From: Candidatus Hydrothermales bacterium
Lineage (GTDB): Bacteria; Hydrothermota; Hydrothermia; Hydrothermales; JAJRUZ01
NCBI GenBank assembly: GCA_039630575.1
Contig: JBCNUW010000007.1
Span: 1-64,000 of the forward strand
DNA: 64,000 bases
Reading direction: 5' to 3'
Part shown: positions 1,998-59,468 of the stretch, piece by piece
Position numbering within the stretch: position 1 is the first letter of the stretch
How the letters are laid out: the number at the start of each line of letters is the position of its first letter
The notes under the pieces: model-generated
Database searches by the model: none
Told to the model about the DNA's origin: nothing
Seen by the model: only the letters and a program-made list of their open reading frames with translations
Program-made: the position numbers and the translations under genes

Positions 1998-2010
1998 AGG
2001 ATTTGAACCT
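1998..2010 (-). promoter_or_regulatory. T-loop-like mini-hairpin AGG-TTCAAAT-CCT upstream of the redoxin gene
   Basis: The 11-mer core (1999-2009) ends 19 nt before ATG 1979. One of five copies in 5' leaders. Confidence 0.55.
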
Positions 2011-2017
2011 ATTTTGT

Positions 2018-3481
2018 TTAAAACTTCTTAAGGTCTGTTTTTCCTGGAATATAACCCCAAAGTTCTTTTATTATTTTCCTTATTCTCTCTATACACCTTT
2101 CCTTACCAATCAACTCCATTAACTTAAAAAGAGAAGGTCCAACCTTCCTACCTGTTAAAGCAATTCTAAGTGGGTGAATTAAAAAGGCATGTTTCTCTTT
2201 TAAATTATCAGCAACCTTCCTTACAACCTCCTCTATCTTTTTCTCATCCCATGTTTCAATTTTTTCTAACTCACTTTTTATTTCTTCTAACCCCTCAAAT
2301 ACTTTAGGATCCGCAAAATATCTTTCGGTTGCCTCAACATCGTAACCAAAATCATCTATATAAAAATACTCAATTAAATAGGGAATATCTTTTAAAACTT
2401 TAGCTCTCTCCCTTGTTAGCTCAACTACCTTCTTAAGGTATTCTAAATCCTTCTCATATTCTTTCTTCCACCATTTTTCCTTCCTTAAAAACTCTAATGA
2501 AAGATCTATAATTTCATTTAAATCTTTTCTCTTTAAATACTCAGAATTCATCCATAAAAGTTTCTGTCTATCAAATATACTAGCACTTTTTCTACAATCT
2601 TTAATATCAAACTTTTCTATCATATCCTCCCTTGAAATAATCTCAACATCCCCACCTGGTGACCATCCAAGAAGTGCAAGAAAATTAAAAAGTGCCTCAG
2701 GTAAAAAACCCTCCTCTTTATACTCGATCACTGATGTTGCACCGTGTCTTTTTGATAGTTTCTTTCTATCAGGTCCTAAAATCATAGGAAGATGCGCAAA
2801 TTCCGGTATCTCCCATCCAAAAGCTTTATAAAGTAAAATTTGTTTGGGAGTATTAGATATATGGTCATCTCCTCTTATAACATGCGTTATCCCCATATCT
2901 CTATCATCAATTACACAGGCAAAGTTGTAAGTAGGTGACCCGTCACTCCTTAATATAATAAAATCTTCAATTTCTTCATTTTTAAATGTAATTTCACCAT
3001 GAATTAGATCCAAAAATTTAGTCTCCCCATCTGGAACTAAAAACCTAACTGTTTTTTCCCTATTTTCACTTAATAATCTTTTTATCTCCTCTTCACTTTT
3101 ACTATAACATTTTCTTGAATACTTAACAGGTTTTTTTTCAAGTCTTAATATTTTTCTTTCTTCCTCAAGCTCCTCTTCAGAACAGAAACAGTAATAAGCC
3201 TTTTTTTCTTCTAAAAGCTTTATAGCGTATTTCCTGTAAACATCTAATCTTTTACTCTGAAAGATAATTTCCTCATCCCAATCTATTTTTAACCATTTTA
3301 GGCCATTTAAAATTACATCTATAAATTCTTTTTGTGATCTTTCTACATCAGTATCCTCAATTCTCAAAAGAAATTTACCCTTCATTTTTCTTGCATAAAG
3401 AAAGTTATAAATTGCGGTTCTTACACCTCCAACATGAAGAACCCCTGTCGGTGCTGGTGCAAATCTAAGTCTTATTTGCAT
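2018..3481 (-). CDS. gltX: Glutamate--tRNA ligase
   Basis: RFAPAPTGVLHVGG (HIGH-like), LRIEDTD, THVIRGDDH, KLSKR. Confidence 0.98.
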   Translation of the reverse strand: MQIRLRFAPAPTGVLHVGGVRTAIYNFLYARKMKGKFLLRIEDTDVERSQKEFIDVILNGLKWLKIDWDEEIIFQSKRLDVYRKYAIKLLEEKKAYYCFCSEEELEEERKILRLEKKPVKYSRKCYSKSEEEIKRLLSENREKTVRFLVPDGETKFLDLIHGEITFKNEEIEDFIILRSDGSPTYNFACVIDDRDMGITHVIRGDDHISNTPKQILLYKAFGWEIPEFAHLPMILGPDRKKLSKRHGATSVIEYKEEGFLPEALFNFLALLGWSPGGDVEIISREDMIEKFDIKDCRKSASIFDRQKLLWMNSEYLKRKDLNEIIDLSLEFLRKEKWWKKEYEKDLEYLKKVVELTRERAKVLKDIPYLIEYFYIDDFGYDVEATERYFADPKVFEGLEEIKSELEKIETWDEKKIEEVVRKVADNLKEKHAFLIHPLRIALTGRKVGPSLFKLMELIGKERCIERIRKIIKELWGYIPGKTDLKKF

Positions 3482-3520
3482 AAATTTGATTATAAGTTAT
3501 AAAAAGCTTAAAATAAAAAG
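3482..3520. promoter_or_regulatory. Divergent leaderless-type sigma70 promoters for gltX and gcvPB
   Basis: Plus strand: TTGATT 3486-91, 17 nt, TAAAAT 3509-14, 6 nt, ATG. Minus strand: TATAAT (3494-3489) 7 nt before the gltX ATG. No SD on either side. Confidence 0.7.
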
Positions 3521-4948
3521 ATGGGAAATATTTTTAACCAATATAAAAATAGAATAACAAAAAGTAATTTAAAATTACCTGAAGATTTACCAGAAAACTT
3601 AAAAAGAAAAAGCCCTATAAAAATACCTAATCTAACAGAAGGTGAGGTGGTAAGACACTTTGATAGACTTGGAAGAAAGAACTATTCAGTGGATTACGGA
3701 TTCTATCCACTTGGCTCATGCACTATGAAGTATAATCCAAAACTAAATGAAGAAGTTGCCTCTCTTTCTAATTTTATAAATTTACATCCATTACAACCCT
3801 CATACACAGTTCAAGGTATTTTAAAATTAGCAAAGGAACTAGAAAACTTACTTTGCTTAATTTCTGGTATGGATGCAGTTACTTTACAACCTGCTGCAGG
3901 TGCTCATGGAGAGTTAGTAGGTATGCTTATAGTAAGAAAATATCATACTGATAAAGGAAACCCAAGAAAGTATGTCTTAATACCTGATTCAGCTCATGGA
4001 ACAAATCCAGCATCCGTAACTCTTGCAGGTTATACTGCAATAGAGATAAAGTCTAACTCAGAAGGTCTTGTGGATATAAAAAAACTTAAAGAACAAATTA
4101 ATGAAGAAGTAGCAGCTTTTATGATAACCAATCCCAATACACTTGGTCTATTTGAATCAAATATAAAAATTATCTCTGAGATGCTTCACGAAAAAGATAT
4201 ATTACTTTATATGGATGGTGCAAACTTAAATGCTCTTCTTGGAATAATAAAGCCAGGCGATACAGGAGTTGATATTCTTCATTTCAATTTACATAAGACA
4301 TTTTCAACTCCTCATGGTTCAGGAGGACCCGGTGCTGGTCCAGTTGGTGTTAAAAAGTTTCTTGAGAAGTACTTACCTATACCTCGAATATTAGAAGAAA
4401 ATGGTGAATTAAAACTTTCTTATGATTTTCCCCATTCAATAGGAAAAGTTCATGCTTTTTATGGTCATCCTCTCATTTGGGTAAGAGCACTCTCTTATAT
4501 TTTAAGAATAGGAAAAGAAAACCTAAGAAAAATTGCGGAATTTTCGATTTTAAATGCTAATTACTTAAGAAAAAAACTCGAAAGATTTTTTGAAAATCCC
4601 TATCCAAATAGGCCATCAATGCATGAATTCGTATTATCTGCTGAAAACATTAAGAAAAAATATAATGTAAAGGCTCTTGATATAGCAAAAAGGTTACTTG
4701 ACTATGGATTTCATGCTCCAACAATGTACTTTCCCTTAATTGTAAAAGAAGCTCTTATGATTGAACCAACAGAAACAGAATCCGTTGAAACCTTAGACGA
4801 GTTCGTACAAACAATTGAAAAAATAATGGAGGAAATAGAAAAAACTCCTGAAGTTGTTATCAAGGCACCACACAATACCCCGGTTAAAAGGCTTGACGAT
4901 GTTAAGGCAAATAAAGACCTTATTGTAAGAGAAACTCTTCTTGACTAA
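3521..4948 (+). CDS. gcvPB: Glycine dehydrogenase (decarboxylating) subunit 2
   Basis: YPLGSCTMKYNP, QPAAGAHGE, SAHGTNPAS, PLP-lysine motif NLHKTFSTPHG. Confidence 0.97.
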   Translation: MGNIFNQYKNRITKSNLKLPEDLPENLKRKSPIKIPNLTEGEVVRHFDRLGRKNYSVDYGFYPLGSCTMKYNPKLNEEVASLSNFINLHPLQPSYTVQGILKLAKELENLLCLISGMDAVTLQPAAGAHGELVGMLIVRKYHTDKGNPRKYVLIPDSAHGTNPASVTLAGYTAIEIKSNSEGLVDIKKLKEQINEEVAAFMITNPNTLGLFESNIKIISEMLHEKDILLYMDGANLNALLGIIKPGDTGVDILHFNLHKTFSTPHGSGGPGAGPVGVKKFLEKYLPIPRILEENGELKLSYDFPHSIGKVHAFYGHPLIWVRALSYILRIGKENLRKIAEFSILNANYLRKKLERFFENPYPNRPSMHEFVLSAENIKKKYNVKALDIAKRLLDYGFHAPTMYFPLIVKEALMIEPTETESVETLDEFVQTIEKIMEEIEKTPEVVIKAPHNTPVKRLDDVKANKDLIVRETLLD

Positions 4949-5216
4949 TTCCTTAAATTCCCAAAACTACGATGAGTTAATTGATAGAATTGCTCGAAGG
5001 ATATGTGATTTAAAACTTGAGACAATTTTTATAATTATTCTTGAATCAGCTAAACCTCTCTCCTTTATTGCATCAAGTATTTTAGTAGCTTTTGAACCAC
5101 TTATAAATTCCTTTTTTTCATTTAAGGATTACAAAAAATTTTACGAAATGCTTGAAAATAGAGAAAATATTGAAAAGCTGATCAGAAAAATTGAGGAATA
5201 CTCGCAAGAAAAATAG
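4941..5216 (+). CDS. Conserved hypothetical small protein (ESAKPLSFIAS motif), upstream of the GlmL-like gene
   Basis: 91-aa ORF with a TTG start overlapping the gcvPB end. Amphipathic helices; composition matches the other genes. Confidence 0.75.
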   Translation: MTNSLNSQNYDELIDRIARRICDLKLETIFIIILESAKPLSFIASSILVAFEPLINSFFSFKDYKKFYEMLENRENIEKLIRKIEEYSQEK

Positions 5217-5218
5217 AT

Positions 5219-5267
5219 TTGAATTCAGAAAAAAACTTATTTAAAATTTTTTAATGGTTCCACCCCA
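5219..5267 (+). promoter_or_regulatory. Promoter of the GlmL-like gene plus T-loop-like mini-hairpin TGG-TTCCACC-CCA
   Basis: TTGAAT 5219-24, 17 nt, TAAAAT 5242-47. Hairpin at 5255-5267; its core ends 20 nt before ATG 5287. No SD. Confidence 0.6.
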
Positions 5268-5286
5268 ATAAAAAAATTAATAAGAA

Positions 5287-7110
5287 ATGGAAAGAGAACC
5301 AACAAGAATACTTGCAACTGATTGTGGGAGTACTACAACAAAGGCAATTTTAATAGAAAAAAGAGGAGAAAACTACACACTTGTTGCAAGAGGAGAAGCT
5401 CCAACAACTGTTGAAAAACCCTTTGAAGATGTTACAAAAGGAGCTTTAAATGCCTTTAGAGAATTGGAAGAACTAACCGGTATACAAATTCTTGAAGGAG
5501 AAAAAATTATTAAGGGAGCAAAAGGCTCAAAAGGTGTAGATCTTTATGTATCAACATCTTCTGCAGGTGGCGGTCTTCAGATGATGGTTGCTGGGGTTGT
5601 AAAAAGCATGACTGCTGAATCAGCAGCAAGAGCAGCTCTTGGAGCTGGAGCGATTGTAATGGAGACAATTGCTTCAAACGACGGCAGACTACCCTATAAG
5701 AGAGTCGAACTAATTAGACAATTGCGACCTGATATGATACTTCTTGCTGGAGGTATTGACGGTGGAACTAAAAAACATGTAATTGAACTTGCTGAACTTA
5801 TAAGAGCAGCAGAGCCTAAACCAAGATTCGGAATAAGTTATAAATTACCTGTAATTTACGCTGGAAATAAGGAAGCTAGGGAAGACGTTGTTGATATCTT
5901 AAAAGACAAAACAGCCCTCTCAATTGTTGATAACATAAGACCAGTACTTGAAGTAGAAAATTTAGGACCAGCAAGAGATAAAATTCATGACTTATTTCTT
6001 GAGCATGTCATGGCTCATGCTCCAGGATATCCAAAACTGATGAGTTGGACAGATGTCCCAATTATGCCTACACCAGGAGCAGTGGGTCTTCTAATGCAAA
6101 AAGTTGCTGAAATAGAGGGAATTGAAATTTTAGGTGTTGATATAGGTGGCGCAACAACAGATGTATTTAGTGTCTTTCAATGTATCTTTAATAGAACAGT
6201 AAGTGCTAATCTGGGTATGAGTTATTCTATATCAAATGTGATGGTTGAAGCAGGTATGGAAAACATCTTAAGATGGATACCCTTTAAAATAAAAATAAGC
6301 GATTTGAGAAACAGGATAAGAAACAAAATGATAAGACCTACTACAATTCCACAAAACCTCGAAGATCTGATAGTAGAACAAGCAATCGCAAGAGAAGCTC
6401 TAAGACTTGCACTTGAACAACATAAGCAGATGGCAGTAAGCTTAAAGGGTGTTCAAAAAGAAAGAACGATTTCTGATGTTTTTGCTCAAACTATAAGTGG
6501 CGAAACTCTTGTAAATATGATGACTTTAGGCATGATTATAGGTTCAGGAGGAATCCTCTCACATGCTCCAAGAAGAAGTCAAGCAGCCTTAATGATGATA
6601 GATGCCTTTCAACCTGAAGGAATTACCTATCTAACAGTTGATTCAATCTTTATGATGCCCCACCTTGGGGTTCTTTCAACAGTTCACGAAAAAGCCGCAA
6701 TGGAGGTTTTCAATAAAGATTGCCTTATATGGCTTGGAACATGCATAGCACCTAGAGGAATAAGTAAAAAAGGTAAAAAAGTATTAAAAGTAAAAATAAT
6801 AAAAGAAAACAAAGAAGAAATAGAAGCTGAACTCAAATTTGGCGAATTAAAAAGAATCCCACTTTCAATTGGCGAAAAAGCTAAAGTATCTTTAGATCCT
6901 GAAAAAAATTTTGATGTTGGTGAAGGACCAGGTAAAAAAGTTGAAAGAGAAGTAAGAGGAGGCGTCGTTGGTATTATTTTAGACGGAAGAGGAAGACCAC
7001 TTGAAATTCCAAAAAATGAAGAAGAAAGAGTATCTAATTTTTCTGAATGGATTTTTTCTCTTGATGTATATCCTAAGAAGGATTATTTAGAACTTTTAAA
7101 GGAAAAGTAA
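5287..7110 (+). CDS. GlmL/MutL-like (glutamate mutase L family) ASKHA-fold ATPase
   Basis: Phosphate-1 ILATDCGSTTTKA, TSSAGGGL, PDMILLAGGIDGG, phosphate-2 VDIGGATTDVFS, RTVSANLGM, IIGSGGIL. Confidence 0.85.
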   Translation: MEREPTRILATDCGSTTTKAILIEKRGENYTLVARGEAPTTVEKPFEDVTKGALNAFRELEELTGIQILEGEKIIKGAKGSKGVDLYVSTSSAGGGLQMMVAGVVKSMTAESAARAALGAGAIVMETIASNDGRLPYKRVELIRQLRPDMILLAGGIDGGTKKHVIELAELIRAAEPKPRFGISYKLPVIYAGNKEAREDVVDILKDKTALSIVDNIRPVLEVENLGPARDKIHDLFLEHVMAHAPGYPKLMSWTDVPIMPTPGAVGLLMQKVAEIEGIEILGVDIGGATTDVFSVFQCIFNRTVSANLGMSYSISNVMVEAGMENILRWIPFKIKISDLRNRIRNKMIRPTTIPQNLEDLIVEQAIAREALRLALEQHKQMAVSLKGVQKERTISDVFAQTISGETLVNMMTLGMIIGSGGILSHAPRRSQAALMMIDAFQPEGITYLTVDSIFMMPHLGVLSTVHEKAAMEVFNKDCLIWLGTCIAPRGISKKGKKVLKVKIIKENKEEIEAELKFGELKRIPLSIGEKAKVSLDPEKNFDVGEGPGKKVEREVRGGVVGIILDGRGRPLEIPKNEEERVSNFSEWIFSLDVYPKKDYLELLKEK

Positions 7111-7130
7111 AAGAGAATAAAAAAAAATTA

Positions 7131-9762: not shown

Positions 9763-9763
9763 C

Positions 9764-10243
9764 TTATAACTCTTTTATTTTATCCTTAAGCCGCAAAAGC
9801 TCAAGCATTGTAGCAGCAGCATTTTCACCTCTATTTCCCAGTTTTCCACCAGACCTTTCAATCCCTTGAAGAGTATCAGAAAGTGTTATTATTGCCATTC
9901 CAAGAGGTATTTCCTTCTCCTTTGCTATTTCTATTACATTTTTAATACTTTCTCTTGCTACATGGGTATGATGCTCTGTCTCTCCTTCCACAATAGCTCC
10001 AATAACCAAAAAAGCGTTATATCTTTCTGGAAATTTATTCTTTAAGAAAGAAAAGGCACTAACTATTTCTAAAGAACCAGGAACAATAAAAACATCAATT
10101 TGATCTTCTTCAGCACCACATCTTTTGAGAAACTCCCTCGCTCCTCTTAACATTTCAAATGTAATATGAGAATGAAACCTTGAAACAATTATACAGAATT
10201 TATCATTTTTATTAACCTTTAAATTTCCGTAAATTTCAGCCAT
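9764..10243 (-). CDS. ribH: 6,7-dimethyl-8-ribityllumazine synthase (divergent)
   Basis: IIVSRFH, VPGSLEI, GETEH, ERSGGKLGNRG; directly follows ribBA. Confidence 0.9.
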   Translation of the reverse strand: MAEIYGNLKVNKNDKFCIIVSRFHSHITFEMLRGAREFLKRCGAEEDQIDVFIVPGSLEIVSAFSFLKNKFPERYNAFLVIGAIVEGETEHHTHVARESIKNVIEIAKEKEIPLGMAIITLSDTLQGIERSGGKLGNRGENAAATMLELLRLKDKIKEL

Positions 10244-11475: not shown

Positions 11476-11521
11476 TAATTCTTCCTCCTTTGGTCATTTT
11501 ATAAAATATATTATAAAAATT

Positions 11522-12687: not shown

Positions 12688-12689
12688 AA

Positions 12690-14365: not shown

Positions 14366-14398
14366 ATCTGTTTAAAAAATAAATTAAAATATAAAAAG

Positions 14399-14470
14399 GG
14401 CGGCGTGGCCGAGTGGCATAGGCAGCGGTTTGCAAAACCGCTTACCTCGGTTCAATTCCGGGCGCCGCCT
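14399..14470 (+). tRNA. tRNA-Cys(GCA), CCA not encoded
   Basis: Acceptor stem GGCGGCG/CGCCGCC with discriminator T, anticodon arm GCGGT-TTGCAAA-ACCGC, T arm CTCGG-TTCAATT-CCGGG. Confidence 0.97.
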
Positions 14471-14483
14471 TTTTACATTCCCC

Positions 14484-17362: not shown

Positions 17363-18487
17363 TTAAAAAGAATATAAAATACTTATTATGGTAAAGAAAT
17401 CACTCTGATTTCCTGTTACAAAATAAGGACCATTATAGAAAATTTCAGGTGAAACTTCTGCATCAATTCTTAAATTCCCTCTTTTATAAGCTAAACCAAG
17501 TGAAACTGGAAGCAATCCTTGAGATGTCTCTGTAGTTTTACTTCTTTGATCCAAATATTCCTCCTTAGTAGTTAAAATAATGGCTTTTCTTGTTGATAGT
17601 CTTAATATGAACCATTTGCCGAGATCTGCTTCGAGACCTAAAACTGAATTTATTGAAAATTCACCCTCTTTTCCAAAATCTCCAAAATTATCTAAAAGAT
17701 TTAAGACTTGAATACCTAAAATTAAACTTAAAACATCTACAGGTTGAATGTTAAAACCAGAGTTTAAAGTAAAACTCGAAAACTTAAGAGTAGTATCTAC
17801 AGTGTTACCACCAACTCTTCTTTGAATTGATCTATCCGATGCTTGAAAATGAAATCCAATAACAAAACTTGTATACTCTGAAAGGGATCTTAAGTATCTC
17901 ACATCAAAGGATATATCTTGTGTTCCCTTTGCCTTTACTGTGTCCACAGGTTGCTGAAATTTGCGATCAAATGTTCTATTTCTAAAATTAAAAGCAACAT
18001 CAACAAAATGAGATTCTGAAAAACTAAAAGTAAACCCTGGATTAAATAAAAAAATTCTCGCATCTTCTTTATTTTTATAATCAGCAACCGTATCCTCTTC
18101 ACTCATACTATAATTAGAAAAACCAACATTAAATCCAAGCGAAAACTTCTCTCCAAAATACTTTCCATAAGAAAACATTAAACCTCTTATTGTCTTATTA
18201 ATATAACTGTAAACTGGGATATTTAAATAAGCTCCAAAAACTCCGAGAGAATGATTTTCTCCAATACCAAAATAACCTTTTAAATAAGAATTGTCTGTTC
18301 CTAAAGTTCCAATATCAAAGGCTTCAAGAACAAACAGGCTCGGAAAAGATAAAATCTGGGAAGGATAAGTTAAAGCTAAAAGATCATCTTTTATAAAATC
18401 AACAACTCCTCCCATAGTTCTAACTCTTGTCTCTGTTGCAATCAGAGGGCTCAATAGAAAGAATAGATTGATCACTATTTTCCTCAT
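17363..18487 (-). CDS. Outer-membrane beta-barrel protein (putative major porin)
   Basis: Normal signal peptide, alternating amphipathic strands and C-terminal Y-x-F. Strong SD and its own terminator. Confidence 0.75.
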   Translation of the reverse strand: MRKIVINLFFLLSPLIATETRVRTMGGVVDFIKDDLLALTYPSQILSFPSLFVLEAFDIGTLGTDNSYLKGYFGIGENHSLGVFGAYLNIPVYSYINKTIRGLMFSYGKYFGEKFSLGFNVGFSNYSMSEEDTVADYKNKEDARIFLFNPGFTFSFSESHFVDVAFNFRNRTFDRKFQQPVDTVKAKGTQDISFDVRYLRSLSEYTSFVIGFHFQASDRSIQRRVGGNTVDTTLKFSSFTLNSGFNIQPVDVLSLILGIQVLNLLDNFGDFGKEGEFSINSVLGLEADLGKWFILRLSTRKAIILTTKEEYLDQRSKTTETSQGLLPVSLGLAYKRGNLRIDAEVSPEIFYNGPYFVTGNQSDFFTIISILYSF

Positions 18488-18513
18488 ATTATTCCTCCTT
18501 TTAAATAATATTG

Positions 18514-18587
18514 TGGCCCCGGGTGGACTTGAACCACCGACCTTACGCTTATCAGGCGTATGCTCTAACCACCTGAGCTACGGGGCC
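18514..18587 (-). tRNA. tRNA-Ile(GAT), CCA not encoded
   Basis: GGCCCCGTAGCTCAGGTGGTTAGAGCATACGCCTGATAAGCGTAAGGTCGGTGGTTCAAGTCCACCCGGGGCCA forms a complete cloverleaf with loop CTGATAA. Confidence 0.97.
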
Positions 18588-20803
18588 TAAAATTTTATAA
18601 ATCTATACATTTTTTTATCAAGATTTATATAATAAACTCCAGCTTTCAAATTATTCAAATTTATTTTATTTTCGTCTCTACCATTAAGAAAACCCTCCCT
18701 TAGTCTACTTCCCATAACACTATAAATTGTATACTTTATAGGATTTTTTATGCTCTTTACCTCAAGAAAATTATGAATTAAGGATGGAACGAATAAAAAA
18801 CTAACTTCATCTCTCAGTTTTTCAGAAACTGCTGTCACTCCCATGAGATAAGCCCCTCTACCAAGTTCGTATATAACTACGTAACCATTATTTAGTGCAT
18901 GTATACCAACAGGATTATCTAGTGGAACAGAAACTGACTTTAAATTTCCATTTGGCATTACTTTGTAGTAAAGGATATATTCATTTAAAGCTGCATCAAA
19001 ATATAAGGCATATATAACTCCATCATAAGACGGCGAAAGACTTCTAAAATAAGAATTAGAATTAGGCCTTTTAATAGCTGTATCAATACGAGAATGCAAA
19101 ATATTGTAATACAAAACATGGTGTCCTGCCATATCATCAAAAAAAACATATGGTAAACCTTTTATGTAAAATAAATCACCTCCATTTGGAATATAAGCTA
19201 AATTTATAAAGGGACCGCCTCCAAAACTACCTAAAAGTGTATCACCATTTTTAAGAACAAACACAGTATCAAACTCACCAGTAGCAGATTTTATCGGCAC
19301 ATTATAACTTACAAACGAAGAACCACCATCTGTAGATTTTAAAATACCCCCATCATTCCATAAATAAAGCGTATTTACGTTAGAACCCATAAACATACCA
19401 GAATAATCAGCAAGATTTGATGAGGTATTCCTTAAAGTAAAAGTAGAACCAGCATTGTTAGAGAAAAATAAAAGCCTCTCGTTAGGAGAAACAATTACAC
19501 GTAAATTTCTGGTAAGAAGATATAAACTCCTTGCAGAAGAAATAAAATTTTCAACCAAGTTGTTACCAAAAAATATCAAATTACCCTTAAAAGGAAGCTC
19601 TGTTAATCCCTGATTAATAATATCAAAACTCCTATACACAACACCGCCCTCTGTAATTAAAAATAACGTATCTCTTCTTGAACTTACCTGCTCAGGACCA
19701 AAAAACATTATAGCTTTCAAACGATTCTTATATTTTGTCCAGTTTCTACCCCTATTTATGGTATAATAAATCCCATCATTTGAACCAACATAGAAAGTAT
19801 CGTGTAAATTTGAAGCCCTGTAGATTGGTTCAAAAAAAGTTGGAATAAAAGTTGTATCTAAAATAGAGTAACTATAATTATTCCCAATAACTCTCCTTGC
19901 TTTGAAGATACCTCTATCAACTACAGAGGAAATTAAAAAAGAATCTTGATTAAAGGGAATAACATCAGGTATAAAAGCAGGATAATACTGAAAACTCGGA
20001 ATTATTTGAACTTGTGACCAAGTAGAACCTGAATTTGTCGTGTAAAAAACTCCTGATTCTGATGTAAAAAACAGTACGTTAGGACTAACAGGTGAAAACC
20101 TTAAAGATAAACAATTCCCAGATACGTTAGATATAATACTCATAATTGAAAAACCTGCCCCCGCATTAGTTGAATAAAGGAAATAATAATTACTACCACC
20201 ATGATAGGCTAAAATAGCAATTACATTTGAATTGAAAGGATAAACATCGATAAGATATCTATATGTATCAGAAGGAATATGCAACTCAAGGTCATTGACA
20301 AAAACAAAGTTAGAACCTCCATCATATGATCTAAACAAAGAGTCACCAACTATCATATAACAAGTTTGTCCTACTGCATCTAAACCTCCTATCATTGCAT
20401 TTAGATAGATAGTATCTAAAGTAGCAAAATTATCAGAAGTTATATAATAAGATAAAGAATCCCTCAAGAGAAGAAATTTATTGTTACCTGTCATAACCCC
20501 CATTCTGCCAGGTGTAAAATAAAAACTTGAATAAGGAAGAGCAATCTCAAAGGTATCTCCAGTAAACAAATTCTCACATTTGTGGTATTCTACAAAAGAA
20601 CGAACAACAACTTTTTTAGGATTTATTTCAGAAGATATAAGATGAACGATAGTGCCACCTTGAGGTCCAATATAAGTAAGAGGATAGTTTGAATTTTTCT
20701 TTTGTCCTGTAAAAGTTTTTTCATAATTAAACTTTAGTTTTTTTTCAAAACCCTTAAAATTGAACAAATTTATATTGAAAAAGATTAAAAATAAAAATAT
20801 CAC
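18587..20803 (-). CDS. Secreted BNR/Asp-box beta-propeller protein with T9SS-type C-terminal domain
   Basis: Repeated S/T-x-D/N-x-G-x-T/S/N-W/F boxes (RSYDGGSNF, TTNSGSTW, TINRGRNW, STDGGSSF). C-terminus IYSVMGS...NLKAGVYYI...RFIKF. Start re-assigned to GTG 20803 (MIFLFLIFF), because the ORF-track start overlaps cysS. Confidence 0.8.
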   Translation of the reverse strand: MIFLFLIFFNINLFNFKGFEKKLKFNYEKTFTGQKKNSNYPLTYIGPQGGTIVHLISSEINPKKVVVRSFVEYHKCENLFTGDTFEIALPYSSFYFTPGRMGVMTGNNKFLLLRDSLSYYITSDNFATLDTIYLNAMIGGLDAVGQTCYMIVGDSLFRSYDGGSNFVFVNDLELHIPSDTYRYLIDVYPFNSNVIAILAYHGGSNYYFLYSTNAGAGFSIMSIISNVSGNCLSLRFSPVSPNVLFFTSESGVFYTTNSGSTWSQVQIIPSFQYYPAFIPDVIPFNQDSFLISSVVDRGIFKARRVIGNNYSYSILDTTFIPTFFEPIYRASNLHDTFYVGSNDGIYYTINRGRNWTKYKNRLKAIMFFGPEQVSSRRDTLFLITEGGVVYRSFDIINQGLTELPFKGNLIFFGNNLVENFISSARSLYLLTRNLRVIVSPNERLLFFSNNAGSTFTLRNTSSNLADYSGMFMGSNVNTLYLWNDGGILKSTDGGSSFVSYNVPIKSATGEFDTVFVLKNGDTLLGSFGGGPFINLAYIPNGGDLFYIKGLPYVFFDDMAGHHVLYYNILHSRIDTAIKRPNSNSYFRSLSPSYDGVIYALYFDAALNEYILYYKVMPNGNLKSVSVPLDNPVGIHALNNGYVVIYELGRGAYLMGVTAVSEKLRDEVSFLFVPSLIHNFLEVKSIKNPIKYTIYSVMGSRLREGFLNGRDENKINLNNLKAGVYYINLDKKMYRFIKF

Positions 20804-20827: not shown

Positions 20828-20881
20828 GGAATTGAACCTTTTTGTAATCTTTATTATAATAAAAGGGATGAAAATTTTCAA
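20828..20881. promoter_or_regulatory. Bidirectional promoter (ATTATAAT) and minus-strand T-loop-like element GG-TTCAATT-CC
   Basis: Plus strand: TTGAAC 20832-37, 17 nt, TATAAT 20855-60, 7 nt, cysS ATG. Minus strand: TTGAAA 20881-76, 17 nt, TATAAT 20858-53, then the element at 20838-28, 24 nt before GTG 20803. Confidence 0.7.
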
Positions 20882-36896: not shown

Positions 36897-36953
36897 AAAA
36901 AAATGTATTATTATAACACACTTTCTGACAAAAAATTAATGGGTTCTATTCCC
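36883..36953 (+). promoter_or_regulatory. hsp20 promoter and T-loop-like mini-hairpin GGG-TTCTATT-CCC
   Basis: TTGAAA 36883-88, 17 nt, TATTAT 36906-11. Hairpin at 36941-53, 15 or 21 nt before the two candidate ATGs. No SD. Confidence 0.55.
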
Positions 36954-36967
36954 TATTTTCAATTAGT

Positions 36968-37423
36968 ATGAAAATGAAAGAAATAATCAAATGGGATCCT
37001 TTTAAAGAGATATCATCATTAAGGGATGAAATTGATAAACTTTTTGATTCATTTTTTGGAAGAAGGGGATATTTACTTGGCGAGACTGAAACTTTTGTTC
37101 CAGCTTGTGATCTTGAAGAAACTGAAGATTCCTTTATAATTTCTGCTGAAATTCCCGGTATGAAAAAGGACGAAATTAAAATCACTATAGATGAAGATGG
37201 AATCACGATTTCTGGAGAAAGAAAAAAAGAGAGAGAAGAAAAGGGGAAAACCTATCATAGAATCGAAAGAAGTTATGGAAAATTCCAAAGATACATTCCT
37301 TTTCCCAAAGAGGTTCAACCTGAAAAAGCAAAAGCCACTTACAAGGATGGTGTTTTAAAAATTGAAGTTCCTAAAAGTGAGAAAGTAAAACCAAAAGAAA
37401 TTAAAATTGAAATAGAAGAATAA
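36968..37423 (+). CDS. Hsp20/alpha-crystallin small heat-shock protein
   Basis: WDPF, AEIPGMKKDEI, ERSYGKFQR, ATYKDGVLKI. Confidence 0.96.
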   Translation: MKMKEIIKWDPFKEISSLRDEIDKLFDSFFGRRGYLLGETETFVPACDLEETEDSFIISAEIPGMKKDEIKITIDEDGITISGERKKEREEKGKTYHRIERSYGKFQRYIPFPKEVQPEKAKATYKDGVLKIEVPKSEKVKPKEIKIEIEE

Positions 37424-47601: not shown

Positions 47602-47607
47602 TTAAGT

Positions 47608-49430: not shown

Positions 49431-49461
49431 TGGATTTATTATAGAGTATATAATATTTAAA

Positions 49462-53149: not shown

Positions 53150-53169
53150 AAATTTCTTAAAAAGAAAAA

Positions 53170-54867
53170 CTATTTAAGCCTAAAAAAGGTGTAGAATAAA
53201 AAAATAAAAAGAAAGAAAATTCCTATAATTGGGTTTGAAATATTAAAAGAAATGATAGAAAGTCCTGTAATTATTATTAATGCAAGTAATATTCCACTGA
53301 TTGCATCTCCTGCTACATAACCGGAAGCAAGTAAAATTCCCTTTTCTTTTTTCTTTATAATTTCAGATAAAATTCCACCAAGTGCTATAGTAGTAGATAA
53401 AGAAAAAGGAAGATAAAGTCCAACTGCAACTGGAAGTGATGAAATACCTAAGATCTCGAGAAAAATTGAAACCGTTATACCAGAAATAAAAAGATGAATA
53501 GGAAATTGAGCTTCAAAGATTCCTTTAACAATTAATGACATTAAAGTAGCCTGTGGAGCAGAAAGTCTTTCGCTACCTATAACATAAGCTTTATGTAATA
53601 TAAATAAAGTAAAACCAATAAAAATCGATGAAGTAATCACACCTATTATCTCTCCAATTTGCTGTAGTTTAGGTGTCGCACCTACAAGAAATCCAGTTTT
53701 TAAATCCTGAGAAATATCCCCAGCAATTGCAGCACTGATACAGATAAAGGCTCCAATCGTTAGCGAAGTGAACATAGCATAGATTCCCTTTCCACCAAGA
53801 ATGTAAATTAAAAGACTAACTAAAAAAAGTGTTGCTATTGTCATACCTGATACAGGATTTGATGAAGATCCTACAAGACCAACTATTCTTGAAGAAACAA
53901 CTACAAAGATAAATGAAAAGATAATAATAAGAAAAGATGTAAAGAAATTTTGATTAAAAATATCTAAAAGTGAAATTAAAAAATAAATTATTAAAACAGA
54001 AAAAACTATAAAAGATAGGGGAAGATCCTTTTTACCAGGTTTAAAGGAAAAAAATTTTCTTTCTTTAATAAGATTTAATAAAATTTTTAAAAATGATATA
54101 AGACCACCAGAGAAAACTGCTCCAGCACCAATATATCTAATGTATTTACTCCAAATAGAATAAGTATCAAGAACTTTTGCATCAGGAACATAATTGCCAA
54201 TTAAAGGAATAAAAACTAACCAACCTAAAAGTCCACCCGCCAAAAGTAAGAAAGAAATTCTTTTTCCTAAAATGATTCCAACACCTAAAAGAGCTGGTGA
54301 GTTCTCAAAAGAAAGGGTTAGTTTATTTTTAAGGTTTATTAAAAAATAATCAGGAAAAAGTTTAAAACCTATCGCTAAAAACCTGAAAGTAAAACCTGAA
54401 ATAAGTCCCTCAAAAACAGTTTTAGCTTTATGTCCACCTTCATCTCCTGCCTTAAGTACTTCAGCACAGGCTCTTCCCTCTGGAAAAGGAAGCTCCCTAT
54501 CTTCCTCCTCTATGAATCTTTTTCTGACTGTTACCATAAATAAAACTCCTAAAAGTCCTCCTAAAAGAGAAGTTAAAAATATATAAAAAATTGTTGGATT
54601 TAATCCTATAAGAATCAGGGCAGGAATAGTGAATATGATACCAGCTGCCAGTGATTCACCAGCTGAAGCAATTGTTTGCACCATATTATTTTCAAGAATA
54701 GTACCTCTTTTTAAAATTCCTCTCAAAATAGCCATAGAAACACAAGCAGCAGGTATTGAAGCAGAAACTGTCATTCCTGCCTTAAGACCAAGATATGCAT
54801 TAGCAGCACCAAAAATTATAGAAAGGAAGATTCCCAGAATAATAGCTCTTATTGTAAATTCTTTCAT
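53170..54867 (-). CDS. OPT family oligopeptide transporter
   Basis: YLGLKAGMTVSASIPAA, ENNMVQT, FPEG, SSNPVSGMTI, QDLKTG, APQA. Confidence 0.95.
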   Translation of the reverse strand: MKEFTIRAIILGIFLSIIFGAANAYLGLKAGMTVSASIPAACVSMAILRGILKRGTILENNMVQTIASAGESLAAGIIFTIPALILIGLNPTIFYIFLTSLLGGLLGVLFMVTVRKRFIEEEDRELPFPEGRACAEVLKAGDEGGHKAKTVFEGLISGFTFRFLAIGFKLFPDYFLINLKNKLTLSFENSPALLGVGIILGKRISFLLLAGGLLGWLVFIPLIGNYVPDAKVLDTYSIWSKYIRYIGAGAVFSGGLISFLKILLNLIKERKFFSFKPGKKDLPLSFIVFSVLIIYFLISLLDIFNQNFFTSFLIIIFSFIFVVVSSRIVGLVGSSSNPVSGMTIATLFLVSLLIYILGGKGIYAMFTSLTIGAFICISAAIAGDISQDLKTGFLVGATPKLQQIGEIIGVITSSIFIGFTLFILHKAYVIGSERLSAPQATLMSLIVKGIFEAQFPIHLFISGITVSIFLEILGISSLPVAVGLYLPFSLSTTIALGGILSEIIKKKEKGILLASGYVAGDAISGILLALIIITGLSIISFNISNPIIGIFFLFIFLFYTFFRLK

Positions 54868-54893
54868 GGATTAATTATATCTTATAATAATTT
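54868..54893. promoter_or_regulatory. 26-nt divergent leaderless promoter pair (OPT / accD)
   Basis: Minus TATAAT 54879-74 (6 nt to ATG) and plus TATAAT 54883-88 (5 nt to ATG). Confidence 0.65.
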
Positions 54894-55712
54894 ATGTTTT
54901 ACAGAAAACCCTTTAAACCTGATAAAAAGGAAATTAAGGCTGATGTATGGAAAAAATGTGAGAATTGTGGAGAAACACTCCATGTAGCTCAACTAGAGAA
55001 AAATTTATGGGTATGCTCTAAGTGTTCCTTTCATTTTAGAATACCAGCAAAAAAATATATTGAAATTGTCTTCGAAGAAAATACCTTTGAAGAACTCTTT
55101 CTCCATATTGAATCTGACGACCCTTTAAACTTTCCAGATTATAAAAAGAAATACAAAAAAGCAAAAGAAGAAACAGGACTAAAAGAGGCTTGTATAACAG
55201 GAAAAGGTAAAATTGATAAATTTTTTGTATCTGCCTTTATATCAGACTTTTCCTTTATGGGAGGCAGTATGGGTTCTGCTTACGGTGAAAAATTCTACTT
55301 AATATGTGAATACGCAACTAAAGAAAAACTTCCTCTAATTGCAATAACTTCATCAGGAGGAGGAGCACGAATGCAAGAGGGTATAATCTCTTTAATGCAA
55401 CTTGTAAAGACAAATATAGGTGTAAAATTACTTAAAGAAAATAGAATCCCCTATATCACAGTACTCTGTGATCCAACAATGGGAGGAGTAATGGCTTCAT
55501 TTGCAGCACTTGGAGATATTTCTTTAGCTGAAAAAGGTGCTCTTTTAGGATTTGCGGGCCCAAGAGTAATTGAACAGACAATAAAACAAAAATTACCCCC
55601 TGGATTCCAAAGAGCTGAATTTCAGTTTGAACATGGTATGATAGACGAAGTTATCGACAGAAGAGAGTTAAAAAAAATGTTAATAAAAATTTTAAGTATA
55701 ATTTGGGATTAA
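54894..55712 (+). CDS. accD: Acetyl-CoA carboxylase carboxyltransferase beta subunit
   Basis: WKKCENC...VCSKC zinc finger, FMGGSMGS, GGARMQEG, GFAGPRVIEQT, LPPGFQRAE. Confidence 0.96.
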   Translation: MFYRKPFKPDKKEIKADVWKKCENCGETLHVAQLEKNLWVCSKCSFHFRIPAKKYIEIVFEENTFEELFLHIESDDPLNFPDYKKKYKKAKEETGLKEACITGKGKIDKFFVSAFISDFSFMGGSMGSAYGEKFYLICEYATKEKLPLIAITSSGGGARMQEGIISLMQLVKTNIGVKLLKENRIPYITVLCDPTMGGVMASFAALGDISLAEKGALLGFAGPRVIEQTIKQKLPPGFQRAEFQFEHGMIDEVIDRRELKKMLIKILSIIWD

Positions 55713-57709
55713 TCATCTTTTTTTTATTTTTAAAACCAATAAAATTTCAGGCAGACTCTCTACTTTACGATGTAAGGAAAAAGGTTTTATATCTTTTAAA
55801 AAATGTCAAAATTGAATATGAAAATGTAGAGCTTTTTTCAGATACAGTCCTTTTTTTTGAGGAAAGAAAATTTATTTATGCTTACGGAAAAGCAAAATTA
55901 AGATCTGGTAAAGATTCACTTAAAGGAGAAAAAATAATCTATAACACAGAATCCCAAAAAGGGAAAGTCTTAAAGGGTAAAACAAAAATCGAAAAGGGAA
56001 TATTATGGGCAGATAAAATTTACAAAGTTGATAAGGATAACATTAAAGCTTTTGACGGACACTATACAACCTGTGAATTAGAGGATCCCCATTATTTTTT
56101 TTCATCTAAAAAAGTTAAAGTTATTCTTAAAAAAGATATAGTTGCGGAACCTGTAATAATGTTCATAAAGGATTTCCCAATAATTTTTCTACCTTTCTGG
56201 ATATTTCCAGCTACAAAAGAAAGAAAATCAGGTTTTCTAACACCAAGACCAGGAAGAAATTCTCTGCTTGGTTTATACTTGAAAAATCTTACCTATTACT
56301 GGGCTATTAATCCTTACATGGGTTATACAATTGGATTTGACTTATATGAAAAAAAGGGAGCTTCAATTGTAACTGAATATGAATATATTTTATTTAAATT
56401 TCTTGAAGGAAACATAAGTGGAACTTTTACAAGAGAGATAGATCCTAAAAGAGAAAGATGGAGCATAAATGGTATTCATAACCAGAATTTTTTATATAAA
56501 TCAAAAATACAAGCAAAGGCTGATTTTATATCTGATAATACCTATGCAACAGACTACTCGGAATATAAACCTGAAAGACTAAAGAGTGAAGCCTATTCTT
56601 ATCTAACTTTCTCAAAAAATTTTAAAATTTCATATATGAACTTAACACTTGACAGAAGAGAAGATTTTTTAAATAAGAAAAAAGAAACAAAACTACCAAT
56701 CTTTTCCTTCTCATTCTTCGGCAGAGAAATTGGACCATTTAGAATCTCTGGAGGATTAAATCTTTTGAGAATAATTACAAAAGATAGTTTAAAAAAAATA
56801 GAAAATAAACATTTAGCAATTAACAAATCAATTTTAACTCAACAGAATTTTCTGGGAATTTTTAACACCTCCATATCTCTTAATCTTTCAGAAAAGATAT
56901 ACCCTGAGGACACTCTCAGAAAAAAATTTCCAATTTCTTATAACATAAGCTTTTCATCAAATTCTTCATTAACACTATACGGAAGATCTTTAATAAAACC
57001 ACCATATTTTGAAAACTTTTATCATTTTTTAACTATTTCAACTGGATATAGCCTAAGACCAGGTTTTAAAGCAATTGCTGTCAGAGGTGAGGGTCCAAAA
57101 AATCCTTCATCTTCTTTAAACTTCAGCTTAAAAAATGACTTTTTTGCAAAAAAAGAAAAAACAAGGTACCCCCTAATAAATATTAATATCTCTGGAAATT
57201 ATGATTTTTTAAAAAAAGAAAAAAAACTTTCAAATATAAATTTTGTAGGGACAATACCACTTCCATATAATCTTTCAGGCTCAGGAGATTTTAATTACAA
57301 TCCCTATTCAAAAAAAATTGAAACATCAAACTTTAGAATATCCTACAATTTTAATTTAATTTTAACTGAAAAAATGCTTCCATCCAATAAAAATTTAATA
57401 ACTTCTGGAACATATAGCTACAGTAAAAACAAAGGTAAGGAAAATCATACATTAAGTGGATCTTTTTCCGGTCAATTAACAGAAAAATGGAGTTTTAACT
57501 ATTACTTTGTTTATACAAGTGAGGAAAAAAAAATAAATTCTCAGAGCCTAAATTTAACAAGAGATTTGCATTGTTTCTCTTTGGAAATAAGATGGTCAAA
57601 AATAGGAAATTTCTACGATTATCAATTTAGAGTATCAATTAAAGGAATCCCTGATTTGAAAATAGAAAGAAACTTTTTCGAAACTATCTTACCATCTTTG
57701 CAAGAGTAA
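55703..57709 (+). CDS. lptD: LPS-assembly protein LptD
   Basis: N-terminal OstA-like strands, YTTC...PHY, RKSGFLTP, YYWAIN, RDLHCF beta-barrel end. Confidence 0.88.
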   Translation: MGLIIFFLFLKPIKFQADSLLYDVRKKVLYLLKNVKIEYENVELFSDTVLFFEERKFIYAYGKAKLRSGKDSLKGEKIIYNTESQKGKVLKGKTKIEKGILWADKIYKVDKDNIKAFDGHYTTCELEDPHYFFSSKKVKVILKKDIVAEPVIMFIKDFPIIFLPFWIFPATKERKSGFLTPRPGRNSLLGLYLKNLTYYWAINPYMGYTIGFDLYEKKGASIVTEYEYILFKFLEGNISGTFTREIDPKRERWSINGIHNQNFLYKSKIQAKADFISDNTYATDYSEYKPERLKSEAYSYLTFSKNFKISYMNLTLDRREDFLNKKKETKLPIFSFSFFGREIGPFRISGGLNLLRIITKDSLKKIENKHLAINKSILTQQNFLGIFNTSISLNLSEKIYPEDTLRKKFPISYNISFSSNSSLTLYGRSLIKPPYFENFYHFLTISTGYSLRPGFKAIAVRGEGPKNPSSSLNFSLKNDFFAKKEKTRYPLININISGNYDFLKKEKKLSNINFVGTIPLPYNLSGSGDFNYNPYSKKIETSNFRISYNFNLILTEKMLPSNKNLITSGTYSYSKNKGKENHTLSGSFSGQLTEKWSFNYYFVYTSEEKKINSQSLNLTRDLHCFSLEIRWSKIGNFYDYQFRVSIKGIPDLKIERNFFETILPSLQE

Positions 57710-57717
57710 ATTATATA

Positions 57718-59406
57718 TTATTCCTTTTCTTCCTCTTCTTCTATATTAGATAATTTTTCAAGTTCAGCCCTTAAAAGCTCACCAAGATTTATTCTTGCTG
57801 GACCACCTTCAGTATACTTTGCAATCTCCTTCTTCTGTAAGATTCTTTCATATTCCTTTTCTGATAATAAAATTCTCTTTCTCTGGGGTTCAACTTTTAA
57901 AACTTTTAAGTTTATTTCTTCACCTTGCTTATAATTCTCCAAAACATTCCCCTTTTTTGAAAGATGAGAAAGAGGTACAAAACCTTCGAGTCCCTTATCA
58001 ACTTCAACAATTAATCCCTTATCTGTTACTTTCAAAACTGGAGCTTTTAAAGTTGTTTCAGAAGTTAATCTCTTAGAAATTTCTTTCCATGGATCTGGTC
58101 TTAAATGCTTAAGTGATAGTGTAATAGTCCTTGCCTTTTTATCAATATTCATTACTTTCAATCTCAACTTTTGATTTATTCTTAAAGCCTCTTCAGGCTT
58201 AGAGAATTTTCTTGTCCAGGAAATATCAGAGGAGTGAAGATAGCCCTCTAAACCATCGTCAAGTTCTATTATTGCACCAAAACTATCAAATCCAATAACT
58301 TTACCTTTAACTACAGACCCTCTTGGAATTTTCTCCTCAATATAAGTCCAAGGATCTGGTTGAGTCTGCTTAATTCCAAGAGCTATTCTCATCTTTTCCT
58401 TATCTATATCTAAAACTAAAGCTTCAATCCAATCACCCTCCCTAACAACTTCAGATGGTTCTTTTATTTTTTTCCAAGATAACTCACTTATATGACAAAA
58501 ACCAAGAATATCCTTTTCAAGCTCTATTAAAACTCCATAAGGCAATACCTTTCTTACTATACCTTTTACCTTTGTTCCTATAGGATATTTCTTTTCTATT
58601 TCTTCCCATTTTTCCGGAACTATATCTTTTACTGATAATATAAATCTCAATTTTTCAACATCCTTATCAATAATCTTTACTTTTATCTTTTCACCTATTT
58701 TTACAACTTCCTTTGCGTTTTTGACTCTTCTTGGCGACAACTCACTTAAAGGAATGAATCCCTCTATATTATCAATTTCAACGGTTACACCAACATTAGA
58801 GACAGCTTTAACTTCTCCTTCCACAATCTGACCAATCTCAAATTTTTCCCTAATTATCTTTTTCTTATTTTCTATTTCCTCCTCAATATAAGCCTTTCTT
58901 GAAGCTACTATATTTTTTCTTTCTTTGTTAACCTTAATAATCTTGAAATGAATATTCTTACCAACAAGCAAATTTACATTTTTTACTGGCTTTACATCTA
59001 TTTGAGAACCTGGCATAAAAGCATCAACACCAAAAACATCAACTATCAAACCTCCCTTTACCCTCCTCAAAACTTTTCCTAAAACAGTTTTATTGTTTTC
59101 ATGAACATCACTAATTTTATCCCAAGCAAGTTCAAAATCAGATTTATGCTTAGAAAGAATTACAAAACCATCCGGACCATCTGGATCTTCAACATAAAGA
59201 GTAACCTCATCACCGGGTTTTAGTTCATCGGGATTTTTAAACTCCTCTTTAGGACAAATTCCCTCAGCCTTTACACCAAGATCAAAAAATATTTCTCTTT
59301 CACCAACTTTTAAAACTTTCCCTTTTACAATATCTCCTTCTTTTAAAGTTTTAAAACTTTGATTTATAAGTGACTCTATCTTTTCATTTAAATCTTCTAC
59401 TACCAT
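57718..59406 (-). CDS. rpsA: 30S ribosomal protein S1
   Basis: Six S1 repeats (GDIVKGKV, VKGGL..AFMPGSQ, GFCHISELSW, GYLHSSDISW, GFVPLSHL). Start re-assigned to ATG 59406, which follows AAGGAGG. Confidence 0.96.
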   Translation of the reverse strand: MVVEDLNEKIESLINQSFKTLKEGDIVKGKVLKVGEREIFFDLGVKAEGICPKEEFKNPDELKPGDEVTLYVEDPDGPDGFVILSKHKSDFELAWDKISDVHENNKTVLGKVLRRVKGGLIVDVFGVDAFMPGSQIDVKPVKNVNLLVGKNIHFKIIKVNKERKNIVASRKAYIEEEIENKKKIIREKFEIGQIVEGEVKAVSNVGVTVEIDNIEGFIPLSELSPRRVKNAKEVVKIGEKIKVKIIDKDVEKLRFILSVKDIVPEKWEEIEKKYPIGTKVKGIVRKVLPYGVLIELEKDILGFCHISELSWKKIKEPSEVVREGDWIEALVLDIDKEKMRIALGIKQTQPDPWTYIEEKIPRGSVVKGKVIGFDSFGAIIELDDGLEGYLHSSDISWTRKFSKPEEALRINQKLRLKVMNIDKKARTITLSLKHLRPDPWKEISKRLTSETTLKAPVLKVTDKGLIVEVDKGLEGFVPLSHLSKKGNVLENYKQGEEINLKVLKVEPQRKRILLSEKEYERILQKKEIAKYTEGGPARINLGELLRAELEKLSNIEEEEEKE

Positions 59407-59428
59407 TAATTTAATTCCTCCTTCATTC

Positions 59429-59468
59429 AACTCTCCAACTTTTATGGATTTGAACCAAAGGGAGAGTT
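59429..59468 (-). promoter_or_regulatory. Structured rpsA leader: long hairpin capped by T-loop-like TGG-TTCAAAT-CCA
   Basis: AACTCTCC/GGAGAGTT outer stem, CTT/AAG and TGG/CCA inner pairs, loop TTCAAAT. Lies between a GATAAT box (59486-81) and the SD. Confidence 0.7.

Follow-up and report, generated by a model that had tools for sequence, protein, structure and literature searches.

How does a ribosome find the start codon of a gene when the leader offers no Shine-Dalgarno (SD) sequence? Start selection in bacteria is currently explained by SD pairing, by leaderless transcripts that begin with the AUG, or by unstructured A-rich regions. The question is raised by a 64,000-nucleotide (nt) stretch of contig JBCNUW010000007.1, which was analysed as a whole and is called the window here. 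An initial annotation of this DNA had noticed a minute hairpin, with the letters of a transfer RNA (tRNA) T-loop, just ahead of five start codons. We find that this mini-hairpin, captured by the search pattern GGTTCNANYCC, recurs about 120 times in the source genome, on the coding strand and about 20 nt before start codons, and it looks like an undescribed start or expression signal in one family of uncultured hot-spring bacteria of the candidate division WOR-3. We read it, with about even confidence, as a cis-acting RNA signal in leaders that would serve as an SD-independent start-site or expression signal for highly expressed genes. The nearest named relatives of the source genome are metagenome-assembled genomes of candidate division WOR-3 / Hydrothermia, and the three DNA sequencing runs that contain the window are labelled hot springs metagenome; a search of sequencing runs turned up no RNA run with it. 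A WOR-3 isolate, strain sy37, has been described (PMC12285271). The source assembly (G000) comprises 1.886 Mb in 95 contigs at 30% G+C, with 47 tRNA and transfer-messenger RNA (tmRNA) genes called by ARAGORN.

The pattern matches the window seven times, at 1999-2009(-), 5256-5266(+), 14449-14459(+), 18525-18535(-), 20828-20838(-), 36942-36952(+) and 59446-59456(-). Dinucleotide shuffles of the window gave a mean of 0.58 matches and a maximum of 5, and none of the 100 reached seven; the initial annotation had likewise put the chance expectation low, at about 0.2. Two of the matches lie inside tRNA-Cys and tRNA-Ile. The remaining five are non-tRNA copies at the places first reported, each upstream of the start of the next gene and sharing its strand; as had been claimed, the coding sequences (CDSs) of the window contain none.

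Gene names in the window come from Pfam. The first hairpin (1998..2010, minus strand; A-GGTTCAAATCC-T) stands 19 nt ahead of the ATG of an AhpC/redoxin gene (1431-1979, minus strand), and the second (5255..5267, plus strand; T-GGTTCCACCCC-A) stands 20 nt ahead of the ATG of a MutL/GlmL-type gene (5287-7110). Because a -35/-10-like pair lies immediately upstream of this second copy, the hairpin is probably located at the 5' end of the transcript. The third copy, with the core motif GGTTCAATTCC at 20828..20838 on the minus strand, lies 24 nt before the GTG start of a BNR/sortilin-like gene (18587-20803, minus strand); the ortholog of this gene in G005, a genome of another genus in the same family (f1), has the motif too. 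The fourth (36941..36953, plus strand; G-GGTTCTATTCC-C) precedes hsp20 (to 37423), which offers one ATG at 36968, 15 nt away, and another at 36974, 21 nt away. The fifth belongs to rpsA, the gene of ribosomal protein S1. In its leader (59430..59467, minus strand) the core motif at 59446-59456 forms the tip of a longer stem, the strands of which are 59461-59467 and 59430-59436, and an SD follows at 59417-59423 ahead of the ATG at 59406, with 39 nt between motif and ATG. The spacers first read from the sequence were thus correct for the first four of these genes, as was the presence of both motif and SD in rpsA.

We searched all of G000 with the same pattern, using the reversed pattern as a control; gene and start calls came from a crude open reading frame (ORF) caller made for the analysis, which called 1698 genes. 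The pattern matched 184 times and the reversed pattern 12 times. Of the forward matches, 140 lie outside the ARAGORN genes, and for 101 of these the first start of a same-strand ORF follows within 60 nt. A further 13 lie upstream of a later in-frame start, and by eye most of these later starts are the real ones. The rest comprise four matches in CDSs in the sense direction, 11 in CDSs in the antisense direction and 11 in other intergenic DNA, several of which precede small ORFs that the caller missed or represent the ends of tmRNA and tRNA genes. About 120-127 copies are start-proximal and on the coding strand, with the end of the motif 17-25 nt before the start (mode 19-21). When G was also allowed at motif position 9, we obtained 120 mini-hairpin genes, together with 25 genes that follow the T-arm of a real tRNA. 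The distance from motif end to start is tight in genes without an SD (median 21 nt, mostly 17-25) and longer in motif genes with a strong SD (median 27 nt, range 21-37). The bias towards one strand and towards start codons that had been expected from five copies is thus present genome-wide. We note one copy of a different kind, on the minus strand of contig C23, in which a 5-bp stem is followed by a run of T and no gene lies downstream; it resembles a terminator, and may be one, or may be a tRNA remnant.

The element consists of a stem of 2-3 base pairs (bp) and a 7-nt loop, and its letters are those of tRNA positions 52-62 (GG-TTCNANY-CC); the same 11-mer occurs in 44 of the 47 tRNA and tmRNA genes of G000. 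Little variation is tolerated, eight of the 11 positions being fixed or nearly so. Substituting any other base at positions 1, 2, 3, 4, 7, 10 or 11 leaves 0-1 start-proximal copies, compared with 105 for the core, and almost every copy has C at position 5. The copies follow the T-arm consensus G53-T54-T55-C56-R57-A58-N-Y60-C61, with its 7-nt loop and closing G53:C61 pair, except for the purine restriction at position 57, the equivalent of which is A in 77 copies, T in 16, G in 7 and C in 5. Compensatory variants of the GG/CC pairs are essentially absent. The third pair outward does covary (A-T 36, G-C 26, T-A 11, G-T 6): it is paired in 81 of 120 copies, compared with a shuffle mean of 57.1 (standard deviation 4.1), and none of 5000 shuffles reached 81. 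By eye, this pair has changed on both sides in at least three orthologous pairs of G005 and G000. The case for a base-paired RNA stem, which had been made from the window, is strengthened by these numbers; the four third pairs cited for it (A-T, T-A, G-C and T-A) are as described, and the copy before the BNR gene has an unpaired A/A at this position. Further out, in the flanks of the 120 copies, pairs 4-7 show pairing at the shuffle level and no covariation. The hairpin has only the GG/CC pairs and one covarying pair in place of the 5-bp T stem, and no partner for a D-loop is present, so the description as a mimic of the tRNA elbow has to be reduced to that of a T-arm or T-loop mimic.

We compared these properties with those of known classes of element. 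ARAGORN and an Rfam scan at gathering thresholds returned only the two real tRNAs from the window, with no family for the mini-hairpin and no additional cloverleaf tRNA gene (RF00005); the initial annotation had proposed this comparison. An RNase Z or RNase P minihelix has an acceptor stem stacked on the T-arm, and pairs 4-7 give no excess pairing that could correspond to it. Intrinsic terminators combine a G+C-rich stem of at least 5 bp with a U tract; here the stem has 2-3 bp and the spacer that follows is A-rich. The motif is not complementary to the 3' tail of 16S ribosomal RNA, and it lies about 20 nt from the start, compared with 5-9 nt for an SD. No position-specific -10 signal of the sigma-70 type occurs downstream of it, and a frequency matrix shows no conservation outside positions -1 to +12, which argues against a dispersed repeat or a miniature inverted-repeat transposable element. 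The spacer between hairpin and start is unstructured and 86% A+U, and it has A at -3 in 70% of copies. ATG occurs in it 7 times, compared with 18.4 expected, a depletion that partly follows from the way in which starts were picked.

Copies occur in two transcript contexts. In 58 of the 120, a -35/-10-like pair lies upstream, with the -10 ending 2-30 nt before the motif, and these transcripts begin at or close to the hairpin. The control, the same test made 300 nt further downstream, gave 5 of 120. In 34 of the 120, rpoA and rplL among them, the stop codon of an upstream ORF on the same strand lies within 6 nt of the motif or overlaps it, which places the copy at an operon junction. Only a start-linked role explains both contexts. 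The spacing is held relative to the AUG and not to the promoter, as the distance from -10 to motif varies between 2 and 30 nt, and this too argues for an RNA signal linked to the start. These observations bear on the alternative that the motif acts in DNA, as a promoter element or operator analogous to the B box of eukaryotic tRNA genes. The letters of the motif are those of the RNA polymerase III B-box consensus, and a DNA site would accommodate the invariant core, the GG/CC pairs without compensatory variants and the many copies near promoters. A double-stranded DNA site does not require a covarying flanking pair, however, and no -10 signal stands at a fixed distance downstream of the motif, the -10 boxes being found upstream of it at distances that vary. 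The junction copies that directly follow or overlap the end of an upstream ORF, the strict orientation and the spacing to the start codon are also hard to reconcile with it, and we regard action at the DNA level as very improbable.

Where else does the element occur? Matches were counted in 31 relatives. Six of these belong to family f1, with two genera, and have 184-285 matches; in the other 25, from nine further families, the count is 46-121, with tRNAs accounting for about 45. When the survey was extended to 251 WOR-3 genomes (42 families, 104 genera), an excess of matches with a low reversed-pattern control was found only in the six f1 genomes, and all six have the element. The largest count outside f1, an apparent excess in G204, was rejected as an effect of composition: G+C is 57% in the loci sampled, and a downstream ORF follows just 8 of 28 non-tRNA matches, at scattered distances. 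This 57% G+C WOR-3 genome also has short tandem-like intergenic repeats of a GGGTTCAAG-type unit (loci L185, L186 and L179), which are unrelated to the start-linked element. In G006, from the sister family, 2 of 12 non-tRNA matches have a downstream ORF, one being a remnant of a tRNA 3' end next to a putative integrase gene and the other probably due to chance. At a G006 locus (L429, contig C1, around 271243) that adjoins a tRNA gene, a copy of the T-arm and acceptor 3' strand forms a long hairpin. Just downstream begins an SD-led gene, 490 amino acids (aa) or more in length, which we read as a putative integrase, and the copy looks like the attachment-site remnant of an integrated element.

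Within the family, leaders of orthologous genes retain the motif, as had been expected of a functional element. Among the first 30 loci listed for G005, 22 of 27 non-tRNA matches are followed, after 19-31 nt, by an ORF that is 60 aa or longer. Twenty motif-led genes of G005 have a homolog in G000, and the motif is present there too for 14 of them (11 of 17 without the tRNA-linked genes); the other six homologs have an SD or a leaderless-type promoter instead. On contig C28 of G000, the homolog of the G005 gene q11 has a degenerate copy, with changes in the loop, plus a strong SD; this copy may be decaying and being replaced by the SD. The GlmL-type gene behaves similarly in the 31 of 80 loci compared: an 85%-identical relative (L002, the closest named) keeps the motif, and more distant relatives have a promoter and an SD. 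For rpsA, 19 of 30 returned loci were examined. In all six f1 genomes the motif sits atop the longer stem, which changes by compensatory substitutions, and the 13 leaders examined from other families have an SD only. In this leader (window 59404-59467, minus strand; loci L148-L152) the 5' strand of the stem resembles an anti-SD and the 3' strand an SD, with the real SD following, and the leader may be a structure through which S1 regulates its own synthesis. In G000 alone, a 6-codon upstream ORF also begins 19 nt past the rpsA motif, and its stop codon overlaps the start codon of rpsA in the sequence TAATG.

This pattern of inheritance leaves little room for the view that the copies are neutral debris, such as tRNA-gene remnants, integrase attachment sites or a small dispersed repeat. 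One tRNA 3'-end remnant does exist in the sister family. The copies of f1, however, have only 11-13 nt in common, with unrelated flanks, they are stereotyped in position, strand and spacing, and they are conserved in orthologous leaders across two genera; the idea is already contradicted, and we find it scarcely credible.

What other kinds of start does the genome use? A TATAAT-like -10 hexamer, the signature of leaderless transcription, starts at -12 in 88 non-motif genes of G000 and at -14 to -11 in about 220; the corresponding figures for motif genes are 4 and 7. A large share of the genome thus appears to use leaderless messenger RNAs (mRNAs). A leader could fit upstream of 493 non-motif genes. 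Of these, 180 are leaderless in appearance, a strong SD precedes 97 and a weak one 37, and the remaining 179 show none of these signals. The 120 genes of the T-arm class make up about a fifth of the independently started genes, and the separate leaderless-type, SD-type and motif-type starts that had been distinguished in the window are found in the genome as a whole.

To the genes themselves we assigned families with NCBIfam, which was run on 131 proteins (115 from mini-hairpin genes outside the window and 16 from tRNA-linked genes); 79 of the 115 match a family at E <= 1e-15. Translation is prominent, with EF-Tu, an EF-G-family protein, EF-P, IF-3, RRF and HPF, and with ten ribosomal proteins (S6, S12, S15, S20, S21, L7/L12, L31, L32 and L35, plus S1 in the window). 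Further copies precede two small ORFs that look like L34 and GroES. Transcription and the nucleoid are represented by RpoA, RpoD, Rho and an IHF/HU-like protein; chaperones and stress proteins by DnaK, an HtrA-type protease and a CspE-like protein, with Hsp20 in the window; and the cell cycle and envelope by FtsZ, DnaN, ACP and SecD. Motif-led genes of central metabolism encode GAPDH, PPDK, FBP aldolase/phosphatase, MDH, an isocitrate-dehydrogenase-family protein, succinyl-CoA ligase beta, pyruvate:ferredoxin oxidoreductase gamma and several enzymes of beta-oxidation. Judged by these families, the set would correspond largely to the most abundant proteins of a bacterial cell.

A gene set of this kind could also be explained without ribosome recruitment. 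The enzymes that act on tRNA T-arms (TruB, which forms pseudouridine (psi) 55, the 5-methyluridine (m5U) 54 methyltransferase and TrmI, which forms 1-methyladenosine 58), or another T-arm-binding protein, could dock on or modify the hairpin, so that the mRNA would be stabilised, or its expression tied to the tRNA pool, as part of a growth-related regulon. The invariant positions coincide with the T-arm consensus, and we take these nucleotides to be the identity elements for TruB and TrmA. G000 has single genes for TruB, an m5U-methyltransferase-family protein and TrmI, and the motif genes are growth-related and translation genes. In published work, GUUCNANNC in a stem-loop of at least 2 bp is described as the TRUB1 code in mammalian mRNA (PMC13492117), to which the element conforms in both sequence and stem, and GU-psi-CG sites in bacterial mRNA are reported to be pseudouridylated at a mean fraction of 19% (PMC13236023). 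Such enzymes leave the tight spacing to the start codon unexplained, however; TruB is single-copy and equally present in families that lack the element, so that f1 would have to differ in some other respect, and the Escherichia coli enzyme binds short stem-loops weakly, with a KD above 1 uM (PMC13492117). We consider this explanation unlikely. Because bacterial GU-psi-CG sites are known to be modified (PMC13236023), modification by T-arm enzymes is quite likely to be true in addition to a start signal.

Real tRNAs also precede start codons in these bacteria. The window contains two: tRNA-Cys (14398..14471, plus strand), in which the 11-mer is part of a genuine T-arm and does not count as a copy of the element, and tRNA-Ile (18513..18587, minus strand), also with a genuine T-arm, which is followed after 25 nt by an SD-led ORF (17363-18487). 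This minus-strand ORF of 374 aa matches no Pfam family at E <= 1e-5, and homologs are found behind tRNA-Ile in G005 and G006 as well. We defined a tRNA-linked start as an ATG that opens an ORF of at least 60 aa, lies 5-17 nt after the discriminator base and has no SD. Such starts follow 13 of 46 tRNAs in G000, 5 of 32 in G005, 5 of 32 in G006 and 5 of 35 in G012, which belongs to another family. Across these four genomes, which represent three families, about 15-28% of tRNA genes are followed in this way, and the gaps cluster at 11 nt. The genuine T-arm is then about 22-23 nt from the start, the same range as that of the mini-hairpins. An enrichment of tRNA-adjacent starts specific to f1 was considered and ruled out, as under this uniform criterion they occur class-wide. 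Some tRNA-gene pairs look common to several families, as judged by tRNA identity and ORF length; from the sequence we take the genes to be CutA behind tRNA-Lys and thioredoxin behind tRNA-Met, and a third such gene follows tRNA-Thr. The class-wide tRNA-linked start is likely to be the older arrangement, from which one family would have derived and spread a reduced T-arm.

The proximity of tRNAs to starts raises the alternative of a processing ('punctuation') signal, in which the hairpin would be cut in the manner of RNase Z or RNase P, releasing an mRNA with a leader of roughly 8-10 nt that is translated in a lineage rich in leaderless transcripts. CCA is not encoded in the tRNAs, many of which are followed by non-SD starts about 11 nt past the discriminator base; one third of the hairpins lie at operon junctions, and the leaderless signature of the genome is strong. 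A processing site is nevertheless difficult to build from the mini-hairpin, which has no equivalent of an acceptor stem, pairs 4-7 being without covariation. About half of the copies are a few nt from a predicted transcription start, where trimming a short 5' stub would have no evident purpose given some 180-220 genes with leaderless promoters, and the implied cut would not yield a 5'-terminal AUG. We judge a processing role to be quite improbable.

The reading that we favour, a start-linked RNA signal, draws on the use of the hairpin at 5' ends and operon junctions alike, the initiation-like spacer, the interchange with SD and leaderless starts, and the bias towards abundant proteins. In this mechanism, a component that normally recognises tRNA T-arms, either a site on the ribosome or a T-arm-binding protein, would bind the hairpin, and the bound hairpin would favour initiation at the AUG about 20 nt downstream. 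The signal would work both at the 5' ends of primary transcripts and at junctions inside operons. The element probably would have arisen as a portable stand-in for a real upstream tRNA, given the SD-less starts that are found class-wide about 11 nt behind tRNAs. A more specific version is possible but doubtful: the mRNA-borne T-arm would dock where the T-arms or elbows of tRNAs dock (the E-site/L1-stalk side of the ribosome, S1 on the platform, or a bridging protein) and so place the AUG in the P site without an SD, acting as a minimal bacterial 'internal ribosome entry site' that derives from genes once translated behind a co-transcribed tRNA. Both the action on translation and the nature of the reader are proposed here from sequence comparison.

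Several results weigh against a start signal of this kind. The enrichment of highly expressed genes fits a role in mRNA stability equally well. The relation to the SD is not one of simple replacement: 28 of the 120 motif genes combine the hairpin with a strong SD, at longer and more variable distance, and the anti-correlation with SD strength predicted by the initial annotation is weak at best, since strong SDs occur in 97 of 313 leadered non-motif genes (31%) and, when the non-motif genes are all taken together, in 17-21%. The nearest-neighbour energy of the hairpin is marginal, with a median of -1.6 kcal/mol at 37 C and +1.9 kcal/mol at 70 C, so its function probably requires T-loop tertiary structure, modification or a bound partner. 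A search for the reader in ribosomal RNA gave no candidate: the 3' end of 16S ribosomal RNA is canonical, and comparison of the molecule between three genomes of the family and 12 others revealed no family-specific site complementary to the motif. The 19 family-specific columns in that alignment are scattered, apparently include several compensatory pairs and contain no insertion, and the only 8-nt complementarities to the motif fall in universally conserved regions that motif-free families have as well. Among proteins, TruB is single-copy in all 31 genomes, with no extra gene in f1, and bS21 is present in 30 of 31 at similar lengths, with no family-specific difference.

If the start-linked reading is true, a sequence-specific hairpin derived from tRNA would constitute a new class of start or expression signal, used by genes that include those for EF-Tu, ribosomal proteins, chaperones and RNA polymerase subunits. 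Its presence in six of six genomes of one family and its absence from the sister family make it a clean natural case for the origin of start signals, for which the real tRNA-linked starts are a plausible precursor. The element affects the prediction of gene starts in genomes of the family, and it predicts abundant T-arm-type modification sites in mRNA. Full-text searches of the literature, supplements excluded, returned no description of it.

How does the element compare with systems that are known? It shares with the T-arm and T-loop motif of tRNA (part of RF00005) the letters of positions 52-62, the 7-nt loop and the G-C closing pairs. It differs in having no cloverleaf, acceptor stem or D-loop partner, in its stem of 2-3 bp instead of 5, and in its location in mRNA leaders at a fixed distance from the start. 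Mimicry of tRNA is known from the thrS operator, from the tRNA-like structures at viral 3' ends and from the mascRNA of MALAT1. In these, as proposed for the element, a borrowed tRNA feature is read by machinery that handles tRNAs; they are single-gene or viral cases that use a whole tRNA or an anticodon arm, whereas here the T-arm alone is used genome-wide. Stabilising 5' hairpins of the ompA type are likewise small and lie near the 5' ends of abundant mRNAs, but they require neither a particular loop sequence nor a set distance to the AUG; the mini-hairpin has both, and one third of its copies are internal to operons. The eukaryotic mRNA hairpins of TRUB1/Pus4 and the bacterial GU-psi-CG sites of TruB type also consist of a short T-arm-like stem-loop in mRNA (PMC13492117; PMC13236023). 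Such sites are scattered, mostly in coding regions and without a positional rule, whereas the element has, in one bacterial family, about 120 copies per genome some 20 nt before starts. Finally, SD-less initiation in Bacteroidetes, of the FCB group, is characterised by a 'Kozak-like' A at -3 and by AUG depletion (PMC6847099). The A at -3 and the A/U-rich, ATG-depleted spacer recur behind the mini-hairpin, and by our counts of start types WOR-3 makes little use of the SD overall. The Bacteroidetes system has no structured upstream module, whereas family f1 has a sequence-specific hairpin in addition to a canonical anti-SD and a number of SD-led genes.

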